Translations under genes and position numbers: made by a program | The notes under the pieces: generated by a model | Databases searched by the model: none | What the model was told of the DNA's origin: nothing | What the model saw: only the letters and a program-made list of their open reading frames with translations | Shown: positions 30,021 through 42,021 of the stretch, in pieces | Position numbering within the stretch: the first letter of the stretch is position 1 | Layout of the letters: each line of letters starts with the position of its first letter | DNA from: an uncultured virus (IMG/VR IMGVR_UViG_3300001041_000010) | Lineage: Duplodnaviria > Heunggongvirae > Uroviricota > Caudoviricetes | IMG/VR virus record: IMGVR_UViG_3300001041_000010 | Length of the DNA: 55,365 nt | Reading direction: 5' to 3' (one strand)

Positions 30021-30133
30021 TGAGGGTTTGATGGTATCGAACCATCAAGGTTAACCAAACGGCATAAACTTCCCCGCTCTCGGCAGACTTGAACTGCGTA
30101 GACCTAACGTATCCTGGCACCTGCCAACCCTCA
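30021..30133 (-). ncRNA. tRNA-like RNA with two T-arm-like hairpins and a GGAAGUUUAUG loop
   Basis: UGAGGGUU/AACCCUCA closing stem; GCAG-UUCAAGU-CUGC and GAUGG-UUCGAUA-CCAUC hairpins. Confidence 0.7.
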
Positions 30134-31450: not shown

Positions 31451-31611
31451 CGGCAAGGGAAAGATTCGAACTTTCGAACATCACTCGTAGATAGTTTAGA
31501 GCTCAGTACCGGTTGCTGGGAAATAGTTTTGACGATCATAAACTTCCTCCGTCTAGACCTTTAACTATCGTATCCCTTGACTAGCGCCTTCAACCGCTCG
31601 GCCACCTCGCC
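31451..31611 (-). ncRNA. Ser-type tRNA body with large insert carrying the GGAAGUUUAUG loop
   Basis: GGCGAGGUGGCCGAGCGGUUGAAGGCG...GAAAG-UUCGAAU-CUUUC-CCUUGCC-G; no normal anticodon arm. Confidence 0.75.
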
Positions 31612-31626
31612 ATGAGAATAATAAGT

Positions 31627-31869
31627 TTAAGCTTTATGATACCTTTTGCCGTCCCTAGTTGCAATAGCTCTTCCAAGAGCTAACTCGTGACCTATCTTTT
31701 TATTGAAGACATCTTCAAAACAACATTTGGCAATCCCCTTAGAGCCGTCTGGCAAAATGACGACGGTTCTATTACCAGAGTAGATCACCTGAGCAAGAAC
31801 TGGAACATTGACTTCGACAAACTGAACCTCTGCTTCTTCAATACAATTAGCACCCGACGTGTTTCTCAT
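31627..31869 (-). CDS. small phage protein (GIAKC..EDVFNKKIG..LALGRA)
   Basis: GAGGAGG RBS; motif common in phage ORFs. Confidence 0.7.
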   Translation of the reverse strand: MRNTSGANCIEEAEVQFVEVNVPVLAQVIYSGNRTVVILPDGSKGIAKCCFEDVFNKKIGHELALGRAIATRDGKRYHKA

Positions 31870-31894
31870 AAATCCTTCCTCCTCTTAATTAATA

Positions 31895-32014
31895 TGGCAC
31901 CGAGGACGGGATTTGAACCCGCCTATTACGTTTACCGCTCCCCATAGAAGATTACATCTCTTTACAGCGGAGAGGCGCGCCGGATACGCTCCCTAACCAC
32001 TTGGGTACCTCGGT
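31895..32014 (-). ncRNA. tRNA-like RNA with extended anticodon arm
   Basis: ACCGAGG/CCUCGGU-G-CCA; T arm GCGGG-UUCAAAU-CCCGU; ~55-nt insert. Confidence 0.75.
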
Positions 32015-32142
32015 GATAATTGCTTGGAACGACTCACCATATCATATCGCTCCCGTCCCCTTCGCCACTTATCTCTACGTCTATTTTAGGGGCTTTCCAT
32101 CTAAAATTAATAGTTAAGATAAATCTTAACTAAAGATAACAA

Positions 32143-32216
32143 TGGCAGCCGTCTGAGAGAATTGAACTCTCCCTTCGCTATGAAGAGTAGCGCGTGCTTC
32201 CTTACACTATCCGGCC
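32143..32216 (-). tRNA. atypical tRNA, anticodon loop CUCUUCA (CUU, nominal Lys), mismatched acceptor stem
   Basis: CGCUA/UAGCG anticodon stem, GAGAG-UUCAAUU-CUCUC T arm, CCA end; C at position 37. Confidence 0.55.
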
Positions 32217-32220
32217 ATGA

Positions 32221-32294
32221 TGGATTCTGTTGCGAGAATCGAACTCGCCCTTCACTGCCTGGTAGCAGGGCGTGCGTCCGTACACCAATAGAAT
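32221..32294 (-). ncRNA. tRNA-like RNA with distorted anticodon arm
   Basis: GCGAG-UUCGAUU-CUCGC T arm, CCA end; CUGC-UACCAG-GCAG in place of a 7-nt loop. Confidence 0.6.
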
Positions 32295-32316
32295 CATGTA
32301 ATACGTTGAAATAATT

Positions 32317-33666: not shown

Positions 33667-33748
33667 TGGGCAGGGCAAAGGGATTCGAACCCCTGATAGC
33701 GATCATAAACTTCCTTCGCTCGTTTTAAACCACTAAACTATACCCCGC
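33667..33748 (-). ncRNA. tRNA-like RNA (G-1:C73, CCA) with 13-nt anticodon loop AGGAAGUUUAUGA
   Basis: AGCGA/UCGCU stem; AGGGG-UUCGAAU-CCCUU T arm. Confidence 0.8.
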
Positions 33749-33761
33749 ATGAGAATAATAT

Positions 33762-33957
33762 TGTAGCGGATAGAAGGGCTCGAACCCCCAACCGTATATA
33801 AGCTACTTATATGCTTTCGTCCGGACTAATCACATACTCCTCACTTATACAGTTAATCTCCAAAGAATTACTTTATTCATGTGATCAACATGGTTTATAT
33901 AACTCCGTAATTAACCGCTATCTCTCGATAGCCGCTCTACCATTGAGCTATATCCGC
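33762..33957 (-). ncRNA. tRNA-like RNA with ~130-nt multi-hairpin insert
   Basis: GCGGAUA/UAUCCGC; canonical D arm GCUC-AAUGGUA-GAGC; T arm; GAGA tetraloop instead of an anticodon loop. Confidence 0.75.
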
Positions 33958-33966
33958 AAAATTAGC

Positions 33967-34423
33967 TGGCGGACCCGACGGGGAGCCGCCCCCCGTGTCC
34001 AGAATGTCTACCCTTTGTCCCTGTTACTACTGAGAAATCTGAGTGTCTAACCTACTGGAATTGCAACCAGCGCTTATTAAACCCTCGCCTCCACCACCTG
34101 CATTATACGATGCAGGAAACATGCGTTAATAGACGGGACTCGAACCCGCACGGGACTTTCGTCTTCCACATTTGCATGCAGCCATAGTTAATTCTTTGAC
34201 CTCGCTTTATTTCAAGCGTGCGTATGCCAACTTCGCCACTATTAACTACCCAGTCTTCGACCTTCAGGAGTCGTTGGGTACTCTCCGTTTTAGGGCTGTA
34301 GTTCCTAATTAATTAAAATTAGGCAGCGTTTTTCATAGGTGTAGCATTTGCTTTAATGTCGTCTTTCCGACTGTCATCTCAGAGGACATACTCTATTCAC
34401 CCTGTCGAAACTAACTCGGGCCC
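33967..34423 (-). ncRNA. ssrA: tmRNA with tag peptide ANATPMKNAA* (34319-34351) and a nested tRNA-like element
   Basis: 5' GGGCCCG..UUUCGACAGGG; 3' CUGGACACGGG..CCCGUCGGGUCCGCCA with G3:U70; tag ends in AA. Confidence 0.85.
34124..34246 (-). ncRNA. Leu-type tRNA-like element nested within the tmRNA
   Basis: GUUAAUAG/CUAUUAAC stem; D arm UGGCGAAGUUGGCAUACGCAC; T arm GCGGG-UUCGAGU-CCCGU. Confidence 0.75.
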
Positions 34424-34536: not shown

Positions 34537-34755
34537 CTAAGATCGTCTAAACAATCTAGCAAACCATGATAACCTCTTAGGTTTAATAATTGGCACTGGA
34601 TAGACCTCTCTAGGAGAAGTTGCTATAAAATGACCACATCGTAAGCAACTCCATCCCGTTGGATGAAATACTTTACTATCGATAAGGATCGTGATGTTAT
34701 TTAGTGTCGCTTGGGTAAAAGAAGAGCATTCATTTGGACATTTCTCATTTACCAT
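34537..34755 (-). CDS. small zinc-ribbon protein
   Basis: CPNEC..CLRC. Confidence 0.55.
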   Translation of the reverse strand: MVNEKCPNECSSFTQATLNNITILIDSKVFHPTGWSCLRCGHFIATSPREVYPVPIIKPKRLSWFARLFRRS

Positions 34756-35150
34756 TTTTCAACATAAGTCTCGAATGTAAGTTCTATGAGATCATCATCA
34801 TGAGCCTTACAACGAAAGGCATACGTACGAGAACCGTATTCATCCTGTGATTCATACGATAAATCACCATATGTTCGATGATAATAGACAGCGCCCTTAC
34901 GGAACCAGCCGTTCTTTTTCTTGGCAGTGTTTATAATCAGCTCGATGGCTAAATCATTATTCTCTTCGATAGCGTTGATAATAGCTAGAGCTTCTGCACA
35001 CTGAGGGTGATAATTAGCTAATGGTAATTCTATATCACCTCCAGGATGATCGCTGTACTCTTCAGCAGCCTCAGCAATATGACTCTTAATTTCTTTAAAG
35101 TCAATTTCAACTTTGAAACGTTTGTTATCAACAATACGTTCGATTAACAC
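34749..35150 (-). CDS. hypothetical protein
   Basis: GTG start after AGGAGGTGG. Confidence 0.65.
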   Translation of the reverse strand: MLIERIVDNKRFKVEIDFKEIKSHIAEAAEEYSDHPGGDIELPLANYHPQCAEALAIINAIEENNDLAIELIINTAKKKNGWFRKGAVYYHRTYGDLSYESQDEYGSRTYAFRCKAHDDDLIELTFETYVEKW

Positions 35151-35299
35151 AAATCCACCTCCTAAGTTATTTAAGTTTTCTCCACCCTTCCCGAAAGGGA
35201 AGAAGGGTGGAGAAACCACTTGTGATCCATTTAAAGGCTAGTTGTAATCGCCACAATTAGCTATAAAGACGAACGCTAGTAGGCCAGCGTCTTGCACAA

Positions 35300-35606
35300 T
35301 AGGCGGCGTTTCAACCCGCTTCCCGCCGCAAGGGTTTCATATAAGCATCTTCCATCCACTTTAGCTCCATGTGGATCTTATTCGCATGCCCGTCGCGCCG
35401 GTAATTGTGCGCCGCGTGGCCTGGTGTTTCAACTCACTCTAACACCTGTGAGTTTATCTTCGGCTATTTTCAACCCTATTTCATCAGCCCTTCGGGTTAT
35501 GCGGTATGGTCTTGGCGTTTTCAACTACTCTCAACGCCTACGTAGTTCTCACATCATCTTCATTAAGCGTCTCAGCCCGTCTCACGCCTATATCAAATCG
35601 GGCTTA
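35300..35606 (-). ncRNA. tandem array of ~6 predicted H-type pseudoknots
   Basis: Each 32-41-nt unit has two interleaved stems, e.g. AACUCAC/GUGAGUU plus GGUGUU/AACACC. Confidence 0.7.
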
Positions 35607-36043
35607 TCCATAATAAATAACGATAATAGTACTACTCTAAATCTATAGGGCCGTAAGCTTCCTCCCATATAAATTATACCAACTGTAGTAATATTCTTAT
35701 AACATGTACTTAGCGTTCCCAGCTAAGCACCCTGGATCTAGAAATACTCCTAGATCACTACTATTAACTGGAATTTCATGATGTATTTAGCCTTGCAATA
35801 GCCTTATACTAGAATTTCCAGAAACGACCGCCTCCACATTACTAATCAAACTTAAGTCGAGGTACGTCCATTCCAGACACCCTTAAGCATGATAGCGATC
35901 GACATCCACTCCTGTACCGGAGGAGCTACATGTTACGTTTAGTGATTTATTACTTCACTAACCTCAACGCCAAGAATCATAAATATCAGATCGTCATCCG
36001 ATAGATCAATCCAGTGGCGCTGAAGTTAACAAAGTATCTATTA

Positions 36044-36154: not shown

Positions 36155-36223
36155 GATGCATTGCTGGACTCGAACCAGCACTCAACGCGTCAACGTCAGC
36201 TCTGCCAATTAAGCTATCTGCAT
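36155..36223 (-). ncRNA. pseudo-tRNA with shortened anticodon arm
   Basis: D arm GCUU-AAUUGGCA-GAGC; T arm GCUGG-UUCGAGU-CCAGC. Confidence 0.6.
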
Positions 36224-36229
36224 TTGAAT

Positions 36230-36300
36230 CATACAATACAAGGAGTCGAACCTTGTGCTCACCCTTACGGGGCAGCTCTACGCGTTAAGCTAATTGCATG
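36230..36300 (-). ncRNA. pseudo-tRNA with GUAA tetraloop instead of an anticodon loop
   Basis: AUGCAAU/AUUGUAU; CCC-GUAA-GGG; ACAAGG-UUCGACU-CCUUGU. Confidence 0.65.
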
Positions 36301-36354: not shown

Positions 36355-36647
36355 TGGAGTCCAGAGACTTACACTCTGGAATGTTTGGAGACTATTGCAA
36401 ATTCGTCTCACTGGTGTGTTTTAGATCGAAGGTCATAACTCTAAGTTCTGGTTCCGTGGCACACCACCCATTCACGGACCAAGATCGGAATACCTTTACG
36501 TGTATAGCTAACACACAACCGATACCTTTAACGTCTTTTAGTTATTATTAATTATCACAAGACATAAACTTCCTCTTGTGTGCTTAATCCCGACCATAGC
36601 CTATCATAAAGCCGATAATTAAATATAACTCGTATTCCGTCACTCCA
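36355..36647 (-). ncRNA. ~290-nt structured RNA with tRNA-like terminus and a GGAAGUUUAUG loop
   Basis: UGGAGU/ACUCCA closing stem; CCAGAG-UGUAAGU-CUCUGG T-like arm; CACAAGA-GGAAGUUUAUG-UCUUGUG hairpin. Confidence 0.6.
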
Positions 36648-36648
36648 T

Positions 36649-37228
36649 ATAACTTTACCATCGCTTTACTCTACTGTACCGCTACCCTACACCACTTCGC
36701 CTTGCCGTTACTCTACTCTACCATACCGTTACATTACCCCTCGTTGCGTTACCTTTGCACTACCCTGCTGTACCGTTGCACTACTTTTCCTTACCACAAC
36801 CGTACTTTACCACGCCTTGACGCGACTATACCCTACGCTACTTTACCATGACTGAACACTACCGCGCCTCGCCTTACCATAACATTACAGTACCATACCC
36901 TACTTTACCTTGACGCAACAGTATTCTACTTTACCTTTACACACACAGTACAATAATTCACAACACCATACCATGACGGAACACCACTAGGCTAGGCCTT
37001 ACCACTGCAATACCCTGCTTAACTTCACTCCACCGCAACTTTACCCTACCCTACTTCACCGCTACGCTACCTTACTTCGCCATTACGTTACCATGCTGTA
37101 CCATTACAGGACTGGGCTAGACTCTACCATAACATCACTTCGCTTTGCCTTACCGTGACTGAACCTAACCCTACAATCACGAGACAACACCGAGCCTCAC
37201 TTTGCCATAACCCCGCTCAACTATACCA
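36649..37228 (-). repeat. non-coding array of NGY-NN pentamers (candidate guide-RNA array)
   Basis: Near-strict 5-nt period (GGT/AGT/GGC/TGT/CGT plus a variable dinucleotide), with one extra base every 4-6 pentamers; starts right after the RAMP gene stop codon. Confidence 0.85.
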
Positions 37229-37864
37229 TTACTTTGCTGTGGCTAATACTGTTTGAGAAATCGACTCAATAACAGTAAAGCTGTTAACTTTAAACTGTCC
37301 AAAACTACCATTCCGGAATTGGCCTAAACCCTTAAGTTCTCCGAAGTTAAGGATCTCTTTAATCGTATCACTCGTAATTTCCTTATGGTTTACCAGTGTG
37401 ATATCGAAAGATAATTTTGCACCAGCATGAACAACATCACTCTTGGCTAGTGTTACTCGTGGACCCTGCGCGGTCATAGCCCGTAATGGTCGCTCGAAAA
37501 CTGAATCACATTTCATGATATTAACGCCATTGCGGACAAATCGAATCTTGCGAGGCGTCACAAAGATGAAGTTTTCAAGCTTAGATTTAAGATTCTTAAT
37601 CTTAAGTTGATCCTTTAGATTGTTACCGGCATCACGCAGAAAACCAAGTATCATGTAATTATAGATAAATAAGCCATCTTCGTCTTCCATAAACGTTGTC
37701 CATCCGGAAGTATCGTCTTCAACGATATTCTGAGCTTCTTCGGCAGCTACTTCGGGTATCACTTTAGTGGCTATATATTTTGTATAAACGTCACGATTCT
37801 TTGGAACAGTTCCTAGTTGATCTTCAAGCAGCTCAATTTCTACTTTCATTACGGTCTTTTCCAA
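37229..37864 (-). CDS. stand-alone RAMP / Cas7(Csm3)-like RNA-binding protein
   Basis: N-terminal strand KVEIELLEDQLG, internal ILGFLRDA, C-terminal Gly-rich loop FGELKGLGQFRNGSFGQF; no other cas genes in the window. Confidence 0.8.
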   Translation of the reverse strand: MEKTVMKVEIELLEDQLGTVPKNRDVYTKYIATKVIPEVAAEEAQNIVEDDTSGWTTFMEDEDGLFIYNYMILGFLRDAGNNLKDQLKIKNLKSKLENFIFVTPRKIRFVRNGVNIMKCDSVFERPLRAMTAQGPRVTLAKSDVVHAGAKLSFDITLVNHKEITSDTIKEILNFGELKGLGQFRNGSFGQFKVNSFTVIESISQTVLATAK

Positions 37865-38481: not shown

Positions 38482-41400
38482 TTATTCGCTATCTTCAGTA
38501 GTCGTGTTGGTTGATTCGACGTCTACTTTCTTTTTATGAGAACGTTTTTCTTTAACTGGTTCCGGTGCTCCGAACCCTTTCATCATTTGTGACATCATCA
38601 TCATCGGCATCATGGATTCCATGCCTTCGCCCATATCACCACCGCTGAACATTGACATCATCATCATGGGCATCATAGCCGCCATGGGATCAACTGCTCC
38701 GTCAACTGGTGCTGTTCCGCCGAACATATTACCCATTCCGCCGCCCATCATTTGACTTATCATCATCATGGGCATCATTGCTTCCATTGGGTTTTTCTTA
38801 TCTGAACTACCATAACCAGGAGAACCTGGCTTTGGCTTACTACCAAACATATCGCCACCGCTGAACATAGACATCATGATCATGGGCATCATAGCCTGTA
38901 AACTACCGGTATTCGGCGTAGCACCCATCATGTTAAACATTGAAACAACTTTGATAAAGAAGTTCCAACCGAACATGCTGCGGCTTGGGACGATGGTCTC
39001 GATCTTCTCTTCGATGGGGTTAAATACCGAAATGTTTTGACCAACCTTAGAAATGACATAGTAAGGTTTGCCATTAGAGATGATTAAATCACCGGCCACG
39101 ACTGCTTGAGCAGGCATACGGAAGATCATGTTGTTGGCGTCGATTACCATTTCCATAACATCAATACAAGAGCCCTGTTCCGGATCATAGCACCGGTACG
39201 ATCCATTGTCACCTTTGATTGCGATACCCATCATTGAGAGTTTGAACATATCCGTTGTGTCTTTACCAATTGCGCTTCCGAAGATCTTTTCTAAATTCAT
39301 GCCTGCAAATGCCATTGTTTTTTCCTCCCTTAAGTCAGCGACCACTAGGTCTGCTGCTGTTAATGTTGCGCCCCATGGGCTAGTTAATACCGGATCTACT
39401 CCTGTTACTGGTATGGTTAATTTCGCGATATCACGAGATCCAATTTCGAATACTGGACTTACACTTCCGGATTTATCAATTGATACTAGTGGTATTTGAT
39501 GTGGCAAAATAGCCTTTGGAATAGGAACTCCAAACTTCTTAAACTCACCCCAATGTTCTGGGTAAAGAAAGACATTCCAATCACCAACACGGACGTTGAT
39601 TGCGCCATTATCATCGATCATTATAGTCCAATTAGATTTTGATTGATCTTCTGACGGATCATGACTATAAGCCGTTAATTTACGATGACCAGTAACTGAG
39701 TAATGTATTGAGTTAATCTTAAAATCATCTGGCACAACAATCCAACGAAAATCCATGCTTGAAGTATTTGGACAAAGTACTTTAAATTCGGTGCCAAGTG
39801 AAAATACCGACGAGATAGAAAAATCCAATTTAGGTTCTTTCTTAGCCGTTAATGCTTCCATGATTTCGGGCCAATCACTTAAGTCAATATTGAGCTGATA
39901 AGTGGAATTTGTAGTACGAATTACCGTGTGTGATTTAACTTCAAGAAGTTCCGTGAGCAAAATATCATGAACACGCGTTATCGTTGCCTCTTTTCCAGAA
40001 GCATAATGATACTTATTAGTATCAATCTTACTACCTTTAGGTACGGCAAACCAATTGGCATTACTATTGTCAAACTTATGATTATTTAAGATAACCGTAT
40101 CGATTTCAAGATCAGATTTTAAGAACTCGTCGAGCTTTAACTTAGAGGTCATATCTGGCTCTTGCTTCTTAATCGGCATTATGGGTTTAGGACATTTTCC
40201 AGAATAAGTCTCTTGAAGTTTAGGCCACATATCTGGGAAGATATCAATAGTAAAGTTACCAGCCGAAACTCTTAAGTTTCCATTACTTCCAACATAAACA
40301 TGCCAATCAGACTGATCTAGTACAGGTTCATGTTTGATCTCCAGGATACCTAGATCATTGTAATCAAGTTTATCCCAGTCCATATCTGGTGGAATTCCAA
40401 TCCATCCAAAACTACCGGCTCGTACATCCATATCATGTTTAGCCGATAAAACGCGGACTCTAGTTCCGACAGGAAATAAATCAGATAAGGTTTTCCTTGA
40501 TTCAACTTGCGGCAAAATAGCCTTAGGACAAATTCCTGGGTAAGCCGCATTAAGTTTTGGCCAATGTTCGGGAAAGATTCGAATACCATAATTGGCAATA
40601 ACACTCATAGAACCATTTGAATCGATAAGATGATGCCAATCTGATGAGTTATGCATAGCACTTTCATCGAGTTCACGAATACCTAAATCATCATATATCG
40701 ATTTATCCCAGTCCATATCTGGTGGAATTCCAATCCAAGTAGGCATATTATTAATAACCTTAAGATTACTCTTAACCTTAAGAACTTGGATCTTAGTACT
40801 GATTGGCATAAGGTCTAACATGGTCTTAGGTCTCATTTTGTAATTAATAGCGAACGCTTTGTCCCAGTCTTCGATATTAAAAACAAGATTGAAGTTATCC
40901 GTTATGATACGATCTCCATGGATTCCACGAACTGTCGTTGTATTGACGGATGGTAAATACTTATCTTCGATCATCCGATCCTGTTTAATACTTGTATGAG
41001 CAATTAATGGTAAGGCATATTTAACATTGCCTTCCGTATAACCACGTAAAATACCAATTCTAACAGTATCATCAACCTTGATGTACGTATCAGCTTTGGA
41101 TTTAGGTTCAGGTTTGGGCTCTGGTTCGGTCCAATCATCAACATCAAAGTTAGTTCTACCATGTCCATCAAGACGAACTACGAATCGCTCAGATAAATTA
41201 TCCGATATATACTCAACAATTTCATACCGTTCTGATCGAATTTCATATTTCTCTTGAAGTTTTGCTTCTTGCTCGGCAGATATTTCCGATTTGAGTGGTA
41301 TAGAAAAGAAGTTAGTAAAACGTTGATCGAAGATAAACGTCTTTAATTTACCAAGTCTAACTCCTTTTCCAACGGCCAAGTAATCACGAATAGATTGTAA

Positions 41401-42021
41401 TTTAGACTTACTCCAGTCTTCTGGATTGAAATTAATATCTGAGTAGTTATCCGTAGATAATATCGTTCGTTCGACGACTGTCAAGTCTTTGACAAACTTA
41501 ACACTAGAGACTGTGTCATCTTCAATTCGGATTTCATAATTCTCTAAGATTCTTTCTTCTTGGGAACTCGAAGTGGCTGATTTAAGTGGTAAGGCAAACC
41601 AATTAGCATCGTCGATATCGTCATATTGCTCACGATATAATTTCCCAACACGAACAGTATCACCAACTTCAAGGTATTCAGCGAGTGCGCCATCACCTTG
41701 ATCTTCAAGTTCATCTTCTTCCCAGTCTTCTGGATCAAAGTTGACATCATCATAATCATCCATAGTAATCGGTGTACGATCCTGCGGTGTTAGATCCTTG
41801 GTAATATCGTCGTCTACGTATTCAATTTTATAAGTCTCACCTTCGATTTCATACTTGGCCTTGAGCCTACGCTCTTGTTGGGATGTTGTGTTACGATGCA
41901 GTGGTAAAATAAAGGTATCTGCATCACCACCAAACGTGGATTCTCTTAATGTACCAATTCGAACTCTAGTTCCTTCTTCAATTGGATATTCTTCAAATGG
42001 TTGGTAGTTATAATCTTTCAC
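38482..42021 (-). CDS. 1179-aa modular protein with internal domain repeats and a Met-rich C-terminal domain
   Basis: Repeats VRxGxL..FxLPL..TSxxQE and WIGIPPDMDWDK; MMPMMMMS repeats; GAGAGGTGAG RBS, GTG start. Confidence 0.85.
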   Translation of the reverse strand: MKDYNYQPFEEYPIEEGTRVRIGTLRESTFGGDADTFILPLHRNTTSQQERRLKAKYEIEGETYKIEYVDDDITKDLTPQDRTPITMDDYDDVNFDPEDWEEDELEDQGDGALAEYLEVGDTVRVGKLYREQYDDIDDANWFALPLKSATSSSQEERILENYEIRIEDDTVSSVKFVKDLTVVERTILSTDNYSDINFNPEDWSKSKLQSIRDYLAVGKGVRLGKLKTFIFDQRFTNFFSIPLKSEISAEQEAKLQEKYEIRSERYEIVEYISDNLSERFVVRLDGHGRTNFDVDDWTEPEPKPEPKSKADTYIKVDDTVRIGILRGYTEGNVKYALPLIAHTSIKQDRMIEDKYLPSVNTTTVRGIHGDRIITDNFNLVFNIEDWDKAFAINYKMRPKTMLDLMPISTKIQVLKVKSNLKVINNMPTWIGIPPDMDWDKSIYDDLGIRELDESAMHNSSDWHHLIDSNGSMSVIANYGIRIFPEHWPKLNAAYPGICPKAILPQVESRKTLSDLFPVGTRVRVLSAKHDMDVRAGSFGWIGIPPDMDWDKLDYNDLGILEIKHEPVLDQSDWHVYVGSNGNLRVSAGNFTIDIFPDMWPKLQETYSGKCPKPIMPIKKQEPDMTSKLKLDEFLKSDLEIDTVILNNHKFDNSNANWFAVPKGSKIDTNKYHYASGKEATITRVHDILLTELLEVKSHTVIRTTNSTYQLNIDLSDWPEIMEALTAKKEPKLDFSISSVFSLGTEFKVLCPNTSSMDFRWIVVPDDFKINSIHYSVTGHRKLTAYSHDPSEDQSKSNWTIMIDDNGAINVRVGDWNVFLYPEHWGEFKKFGVPIPKAILPHQIPLVSIDKSGSVSPVFEIGSRDIAKLTIPVTGVDPVLTSPWGATLTAADLVVADLREEKTMAFAGMNLEKIFGSAIGKDTTDMFKLSMMGIAIKGDNGSYRCYDPEQGSCIDVMEMVIDANNMIFRMPAQAVVAGDLIISNGKPYYVISKVGQNISVFNPIEEKIETIVPSRSMFGWNFFIKVVSMFNMMGATPNTGSLQAMMPMIMMSMFSGGDMFGSKPKPGSPGYGSSDKKNPMEAMMPMMMISQMMGGGMGNMFGGTAPVDGAVDPMAAMMPMMMMSMFSGGDMGEGMESMMPMMMMSQMMKGFGAPEPVKEKRSHKKKVDVESTNTTTEDSE

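Follow-up and report, generated by a model that had tools for sequence, protein, structure and literature searches.

A six-unit array of diverged H-type pseudoknots with a conserved G-N-U-G-R-R-A junction in a groundwater phage: a candidate RNA decoy

Several reports describe RNAs with which a newly noticed phage array can be compared. In the type III antitoxin ToxI, loop 2 of the pseudoknot has 1–2 nt and loop 3 is longer (PMC3401426), and the pseudo-ToxI RNA of phage phiTE keeps most of the ToxI bases, with repeats that are near-identical (PMC3475682). The vrRNAs of SUSP1 carry a pseudoknot of roughly 40 nt at their 3' end (bioRxiv 10.64898/2026.04.26.720920 and 10.64898/2026.04.26.720927). 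Among T-loops, the UG..A pentamer is the core of T-loop 2 in the L1 stalk, in RNase P and in the T-box, and a tRNA-binding double T-loop requires both AG..A and UG..A (PMC3664808).

Known phage RNA decoys, namely pseudo-ToxI and the repeat-like anti-CRISPRs, copy the sequence of their targets and are found by sequence search. A decoy that kept only a fold and a seven-base motif would escape such searches, so that RNA counter-defence is possibly under-counted. The array described here is an uncatalogued RNA module repeated six times and known from one phage. Its six natural variants form a ready mutational series for a fold of 32–39 nt with unusual loop lengths.

Genomic setting and architecture of the array

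The window, the whole stretch of 55,365 nucleotides that was analysed, corresponds to bases 62001–117365 of a 117-kb virus record judged to be 52% complete. The same array is found on a 229,618-base contig (L230) of this phage, and most of it is also covered, with zero base changes, by contigs from a second study. The sequencing runs that match the phage best are groundwater DNA, with no RNA run among the matches listed. Its RecJ shares 37.5% identity with the RecJ of Bacillus phage 0305phi8-36, and the named relatives of its ThyX, at about 60–63% identity, include Desulfitobacteriaceae, Pelotomaculum, Syntrophomonadaceae and Halanaerobiales. Judged from these ThyX relatives, the host is probably an anaerobic member of the Bacillota.

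The array belongs to a minus-strand region in which tRNA-like genes and genes for other small RNAs are clustered. At 33968–34412 (minus strand) a tmRNA-like gene can be recognized by eye, which has a short tag frame and an internal tRNA-like element (about 34125–34235) and is called neither by ARAGORN nor by Rfam at E 0.01. The stretches 31455–32300, 33760–33960 and 36155–36290 (minus strand) contain many tRNA-like genes that are degenerate and have odd anticodon loops, and two of three ARAGORN tRNA calls came without an assignment. The sequence GGAAGTTTATG stands in hairpin loops at 33714, 31547 and 36573 (minus strand), with a fourth copy at 30073; twice it falls in the anticodon arm of a tRNA-like gene, one of which (33670–33747) forms a loop of 13 nt. 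The motif resembles a ribosome-binding site and start codon carried on a tRNA scaffold. Farther along, at 38482–42021 (minus strand), is an orphan of 1179 aa with acidic N-terminal repeats, a Met/Gly-rich tail and no PHROG match.

A pseudoknot scan predicts six H-type pseudoknots, U1–U6, of 32–39 nt each on the minus strand (Table 1). All the stems that a preliminary description had listed for six minus-strand units with two interleaved stems each were recovered. The description had further stated that the sequences vary while the topology is kept. Of the 66 pairs over the six units, 64 are of the Watson-Crick kind and only 2 are G-U, a composition that speaks for an RNA encoded by the minus strand. 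With strict settings five of the six units were detected within 331 nt, U5 being absent because it lies below the G-C cut-off, while 1000 dinucleotide shuffles gave no knot in 800 cases, one in 192 and two in 8, so that the shuffled maximum is two against five in the real sequence. At a looser cut-off all six units appear within one 320-nt stretch, and the densest other stretch of the 117-kb record holds three. Since the units are homologous copies, counts of the six-of-six type do not represent six independent events. A pseudoknot-free folding program favours other, long-range pairings over the predicted knots. Taken as predicted folds, the six H-type pseudoknots are confirmed.

Table 1. Features of the array and its immediate flanks, in the order of the minus strand; unit dimensions are given as stem 1, loop 1, stem 2, loop 2 and loop 3
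Feature	Coordinates	Strand	Description
TGnTATAAT extended -10-like promoter element	35673..35681	-	possible start of an array transcript near 35666; putative function
U1	35566..35604	-	6 bp, 10 nt, 5 bp (extendable to 7), 4 nt, 3 nt
U2	35514..35547	-	6 bp, 3 nt, 6 bp, 4 nt, 3 nt
U3	35462..35498	-	5 bp, 4 nt, 4 bp, 9 nt, 6 nt
U4	35423..35454	-	7 bp, 1 nt, 6 bp, 3 nt, 2 nt
Hairpin in the U4–U5 interval, rich in G+C and unlike the units in type	35388..35420	-	-14.6 kcal/mol for 35422-35377
U5	35343..35376	-	6 bp, 3 nt, 4 bp, 4 nt, 7 nt; junction pentamer UGGAA
U6	35303..35336	-	5 bp, 2 nt, 6 bp, 6 nt, 4 nt
Two hairpins 3' of the array	35235..35292	-	first (35291-35272) terminator-like
Long stable hairpin preceding the next gene	35172..35221	-	-27.3 kcal/mol
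133-aa orphan ORF with ribosome-binding site	34749..35150	-	156-aa form matches phrog_28797 (unknown function)

The promoter-like element is one of five TGnTATAAT-type sites on the minus strand of the window and is not among the sites listed by a sigma-70 scan. Directly upstream of it is a seventh pseudoknot (35706–35736, minus strand) of the classic H-type, with 5 bp, 1 nt, 8 bp, 0 nt and 4 nt in the order of Table 1, which is not unit-type. Farther 5', a very stable long hairpin (35950–36035, minus strand; -38.2 kcal/mol) opens about 340 nt of structured non-coding sequence that runs from 36035 to 35700 and has no Rfam match at the gathering score. Relatives of the long hairpin that precedes the next gene occur at three other places in the record. 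They form a family of long purine/pyrimidine hairpins with a common apical loop, at 35199 (minus), 38458 (minus), 47107 (plus) and about genome position 48370 (minus); three members stand just 5' of a ribosome-binding site, and the family may possibly serve as processing or stabilising elements.

The order of promoter-like site, six knots, terminator-like hairpin and ORF is that of a type III locus (PMC5086642), and raises the question whether the phage's own orphan of 133 aa has the array as its regulatory leader or its antitoxin, in other words whether the two are a new RNA-protein pair. A length of 133 aa is within the range of toxin sizes listed in Table 2 of PMC3401426, and conserved loops would fit a single partner. 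Several results argue against such a pair. The ORF has no Pfam or PADLOC match at E 0.1 and in NCBIfam only weak ones (Csm6, E 0.036), and none of 14 type III toxins matched the 117-kb record, which is about half of the genome, by tblastn. Terminator-like sites, of which 2 were found against 1.6 expected, are at chance level. Because the long hairpin 5' of the ORF recurs before other genes, the ORF may be a unit separate from the array. Its predicted fold has a pLDDT of 45 with no structural match at E 0.001. A dedicated partner of this kind is considered quite improbable.

A fixed junction within variable stems

In each of the six units the strand that exits stem 1 has the sequence G-N-U-G-R-R-A. 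The preliminary description had noted the junction GUUGAAA in four units, and this is what is seen. In U1 and U5 the motif occurs in variant form, the pentamer being UGAAA in four units, UGAGA in U1 and UGGAA in U5. A UG..A beginning at the last base of stem 1 is present in 6/6 units versus 2/209 other predicted pseudoknots. The first pair of stem 1 is an invariant A-U and a C-G pair two pairs in is likewise invariant, flanking a variable column 2 that covaries (A-U in four units, G-C in one and U-A in one). In stem 2 the first base is always G and columns 2–4 each show three pair types. Between U2 and U4, the unit nearest to it, a C-G pair is exchanged for U-A and there is one paired insertion. 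As the units are homologous, these compensatory changes indicate that the structure is under selection. Loop 2 is purine-rich and 3–9 nt long and loop 3 has 2–7 nt. A second pentamer, UG..A or UU..A, stands in loop 2 of U1–U4, with UGAGA present twice in U1.

Loops that stay fixed while the stems are free to change point to one ligand bound six times, and suggest that the array consists of six copies of one module. The divergence of the stems may limit cross-pairing between neighbours. In a matrix of stem 1 strands each strand pairs best with its own partner except for U3 and U6, whose stem 1 is identical and which are about 160 nt apart; this supports the proposal. The stem 2 strands support it less, being less orthogonal, with the 5' strand of U1 pairing with the 3' strand of U2 at least as well as with its own.

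The tentatively preferred explanation is that the array is a multivalent decoy with a tRNA-like surface built of T-loop-type junctions, the nature of the ligand being conjectural. One transcript from a promoter near 35680 would carry the six diverged copies of one compact pseudoknot, in which the stems could drift as long as pairing was kept and their divergence would stop neighbouring units from cross-pairing. The working part would be the fixed A-N-C / G-N-U-G-R-R-A junction together with the second pentamer in loop 2 of four units. The pentamers may adopt turns of the T-loop type, in which the T-loop gap is occupied by the invariant 5' A, and so present a flat surface, similar to the tRNA elbow or able to bind it, that would lie 9–13 bp away from the 3' end of stem 2. 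With six copies in a cluster of tRNA and small RNA genes, this surface could sequester a single kind of RNA-binding factor of the host, most likely a defence protein that recognizes a tRNA-like shape.

Among 30 Bacillota T-box loci 20 fit the pattern, with the pentamer UGAAA in six and UGGAA in five of these 20; UGAGA was seen by eye in 3/10 T-box rows outside the pattern, so that all three pentamer variants of the units occur in T-boxes. By sequence, 6/6 units have a UG..A T-loop 2 with the preceding G-N, and the T-loop proposal accounts at once for the pentamer variants, the second pentamer and the invariant A. The many tRNA-like genes in the neighbourhood also count in its favour. There are, however, several points against it. 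The G-N-U of the motif is base-paired in the units. With 0–3 nt following the pentamer, a true T-loop would be hard to fit into a classic coaxial pseudoknot. No conserved copy of the AG..A T-loop 1 partner is recognizable by eye in the units, and GUUG, present in 4/6 units, has no counterpart among the 20 T-box matches, all of which are GCUG or GGUG. A profile of the six units did not single out T-box apices among 355 loci. The CCA end is missing from 4/6 units, which counts against a tRNA-like decoy; CCA follows only U2 and U4, and since its CC is inside stem 2 there is no unpaired NCCA end. If the T-loop explanation is true, the array would either mimic the tRNA elbow or grip it.

Several riboswitch aptamers are built as small H-type pseudoknots whose loops at the helix junction are rich in purines. 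The module could be a ligand-binding or stability element with no decoy role, for instance a tandem small-molecule aptamer, a nuclease roadblock or a mark for small-RNA processing. A terminator-like hairpin and a gene 3' of the array would suit such a function, whereas no riboswitch family in Rfam matches at E values up to 10, and this explanation appears rather improbable.

Antitoxin, CRISPR-handle and vrRNA readings of the units

The preliminary description had proposed a panel of decoy antitoxins against several type III systems. The units could in that case be mimics directed at host ToxN, CptN and TenpN toxins, and their tandem H-type topology and size of 32–39 nt fit type III antitoxins, whose range is 31–62 nt. 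Type III systems are also present in the Bacillota samples (7/251, 4/301 and 6/251 genomes). The similarity does not extend to sequence: in local alignments to 17 toxN/tenpN/cptN leaders from Bacillota samples, which is a small sample of antitoxins, U1–U5 are at shuffle level (101–130 of 200 shuffles as good), and U6 is marginal against one leader (9/200). Some CptI repeats contain GGGUUGAAA, but as those repeats are read here the GUUGAAA sits in the tail after stem 2 rather than in loop 3. Of 14 leaders folded automatically, 12 gave a repeat-borne knot, and loop 2 of the best pseudoknot is 0–2 nt in eight of the 12 and 5–10 nt in the other four. These four are read as pairings across repeat borders, and in one of them (L222) an equal-scoring fold has a loop 2 of 2 nt. 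The linkers between the units share no A-rich cleavage motif, and conserved loops argue for one ligand rather than several toxins. A decoy RNA as such stays plausible, whereas a panel against several toxins is, as far as known toxin families go, poorly supported by loop geometry and leader alignments; it is the weaker reading and very unlikely.

The other proposal in the preliminary description, mimicry of crRNA 5' handles, has genuine if limited support. The 3' strand of stem 1 and loop 3 would copy the 3' end of a class 1 repeat, locked in a pseudoknot, and would act in the manner of an RNA anti-CRISPR as a stable but non-productive ligand of Cas5, Cas6 or Cas7. The segment 35437–35426 of U4 is identical at 12/12 positions to the final 12 bases of the natural CRISPR repeat L295, and 35319–35308 of U6 matches the repeat end of a type I-C locus (L262) at 11/12, as does U4; L295 is placed by the likeness of its repeat alone. 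The other four units reach 8–9/12 against repeat ends. With both strands counted, the 117-kb record has only three sites that reach 11/12 against the L262 end, and two of these belong to the array; the result is modest, since the units are copies of one another and the test was picked post hoc. A type I-C repeat profile ranked U6 second and U4 fourth of 38 matches, though these matches span only 9–12 nt with E values of 5–300. Rfam yields a single match within the array, which is to CRISPR-DR8 and falls on U1 (19.1 bits, E 0.13, against a gathering score of 39). When three repeat-end motifs were required at the spacing of a CRISPR array, 55/151 Bacillota genomes matched.

Whole-unit similarity is, by contrast, mostly background. 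Compared with 47 repeats, U1–U6 were equalled by 200, 279, 105, 105, 150 and 20 of 700 control windows, which were genome windows ending in the same motif. A profile of 37-nt repeats gave 47 matches, none of them in the array, and a separate idea that U1–U3 resemble 37-nt CRISPR repeats was dropped on the control windows and this profile. No near-complete match of a unit to a CRISPR repeat was obtained in Rfam, among the 47 repeats or with the repeat profiles. After 4 of the 47 strings had been dropped as wrong-strand or non-CRISPR, all 43 remaining repeat ends have UGAAA and none has the UGAGA of U1; the patterns used were unable to sample the UGGAA of U5. The hairpin that precedes the handle in a repeat is absent, and the handle is base-paired in the knot. 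For RacrIF1, the handle alone is reported to have given no inhibition (PMC10651486). Pseudoknot-locked handle decoys are judged unlikely; a true handle mimic would jam class 1 CRISPR assembly and escape repeat-matching searches.

About 1.6 kb upstream of the array is a VIPR-like locus, in which a protein of 211 aa (37229–37864, minus strand) with 1528 relatives is followed by some 600 nt of repeats with a 5-nt period (36620–37225, minus strand); by eye this tract has no internal tails. The protein is RAMP-like and shares a G-loop region with SUSP1 Vipr at a probability of 84%, and the units could be vrRNA tails serving it, given the similar size of the SUSP1 pseudoknot. The SUSP1 tail is, as read here, a classic knot with a loop 2 of 0 nt and a loop 3 of 7 nt, and the array lacks the 5-nt periodicity (0.26 at lag 5 versus 0.49 in the VIPR tract), which makes such a role most improbable. 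Hammerhead, K-turn, TIGR, attC and frameshift readings were dropped by eye against consensus features.

Distribution and relation to described RNA systems

At the gathering score no Rfam family matches the units, including the wcaG, abiF and DUF3800 motifs, riboswitches and ribozymes. Neither DUF3800 nor Abi_2 was found in the half of the genome present in the record. Pattern scans, which in their exact form miss diverged units, gave no unit-type array among the matches listed for viral contigs (17, 15, at least 120 and 37 matches) or among 11 matches in genome contigs; of 12 matches in metagenome contigs, L230 alone has such an array and belongs to the same phage. No match to the array was returned by blastn against phages and plasmids. 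Of the protein-led locus searches two were empty, and the matches listed for the others, three Vipr-like loci and two distant phages, show no such array in the sequence listed. The six-unit profile, run over 355 loci (1.04 Mb) and the genome, produced 13 matches, and only the six units form the knot. A published description of the array was not found in a literature search that covered open papers and preprint main texts.

It is possible, if somewhat doubtful, that the array represents a new class of phage counter-defence RNA, in which each pseudoknot of a multivalent series locks a GUUGAAA-type motif and acts either as a fourth free-standing T-loop device or as an uncleavable mimic of the crRNA handle.

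The known systems each share part of this design. The tail of the SUSP1 vrRNA has in common a pseudoknot of about 40 nt near a Vipr-like gene, but its loop geometry differs and the units are not preceded by a GGYNN tract. RNA anti-CRISPRs built of solitary repeat units and viral crlRNA arrays (PMC10651486; bioRxiv 10.1101/2024.10.29.618823) are likewise non-coding phage arrays, and their class 1 repeat-end motif has a candidate counterpart in the units. The present array differs from them in having no whole repeat, no pre-handle hairpin and no spacer-like segments, and in pairing the handle within a pseudoknot. ToxI/AbiQ, CptI, TenpI and pseudo-ToxI (PMC3401426, PMC5086642, PMC12283969, PMC3475682) are all tandem H-type knots of 30–45 nt, and the likeness to type III loci extends to the order of promoter-like site, array, terminator-like hairpin and small ORF. 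The units are, however, not near-identical and share no A-rich tail, and they reverse the geometry of ToxI, with a loop 2 of 3–9 nt and a loop 3 of 2–7 nt in place of a loop 2 of 1–2 nt and a longer loop 3. Whereas pseudo-ToxI keeps sequence, the array keeps its loops and lets its stems vary. The double T-loop modules of the T-box type share the G-N-U-G-R-R-A motif with the same pentamer variants, with a second pentamer nearby in four units; they differ in having an AG..A partner, while in the array the pentamers are 5–6 nt apart and embedded in a pseudoknot.
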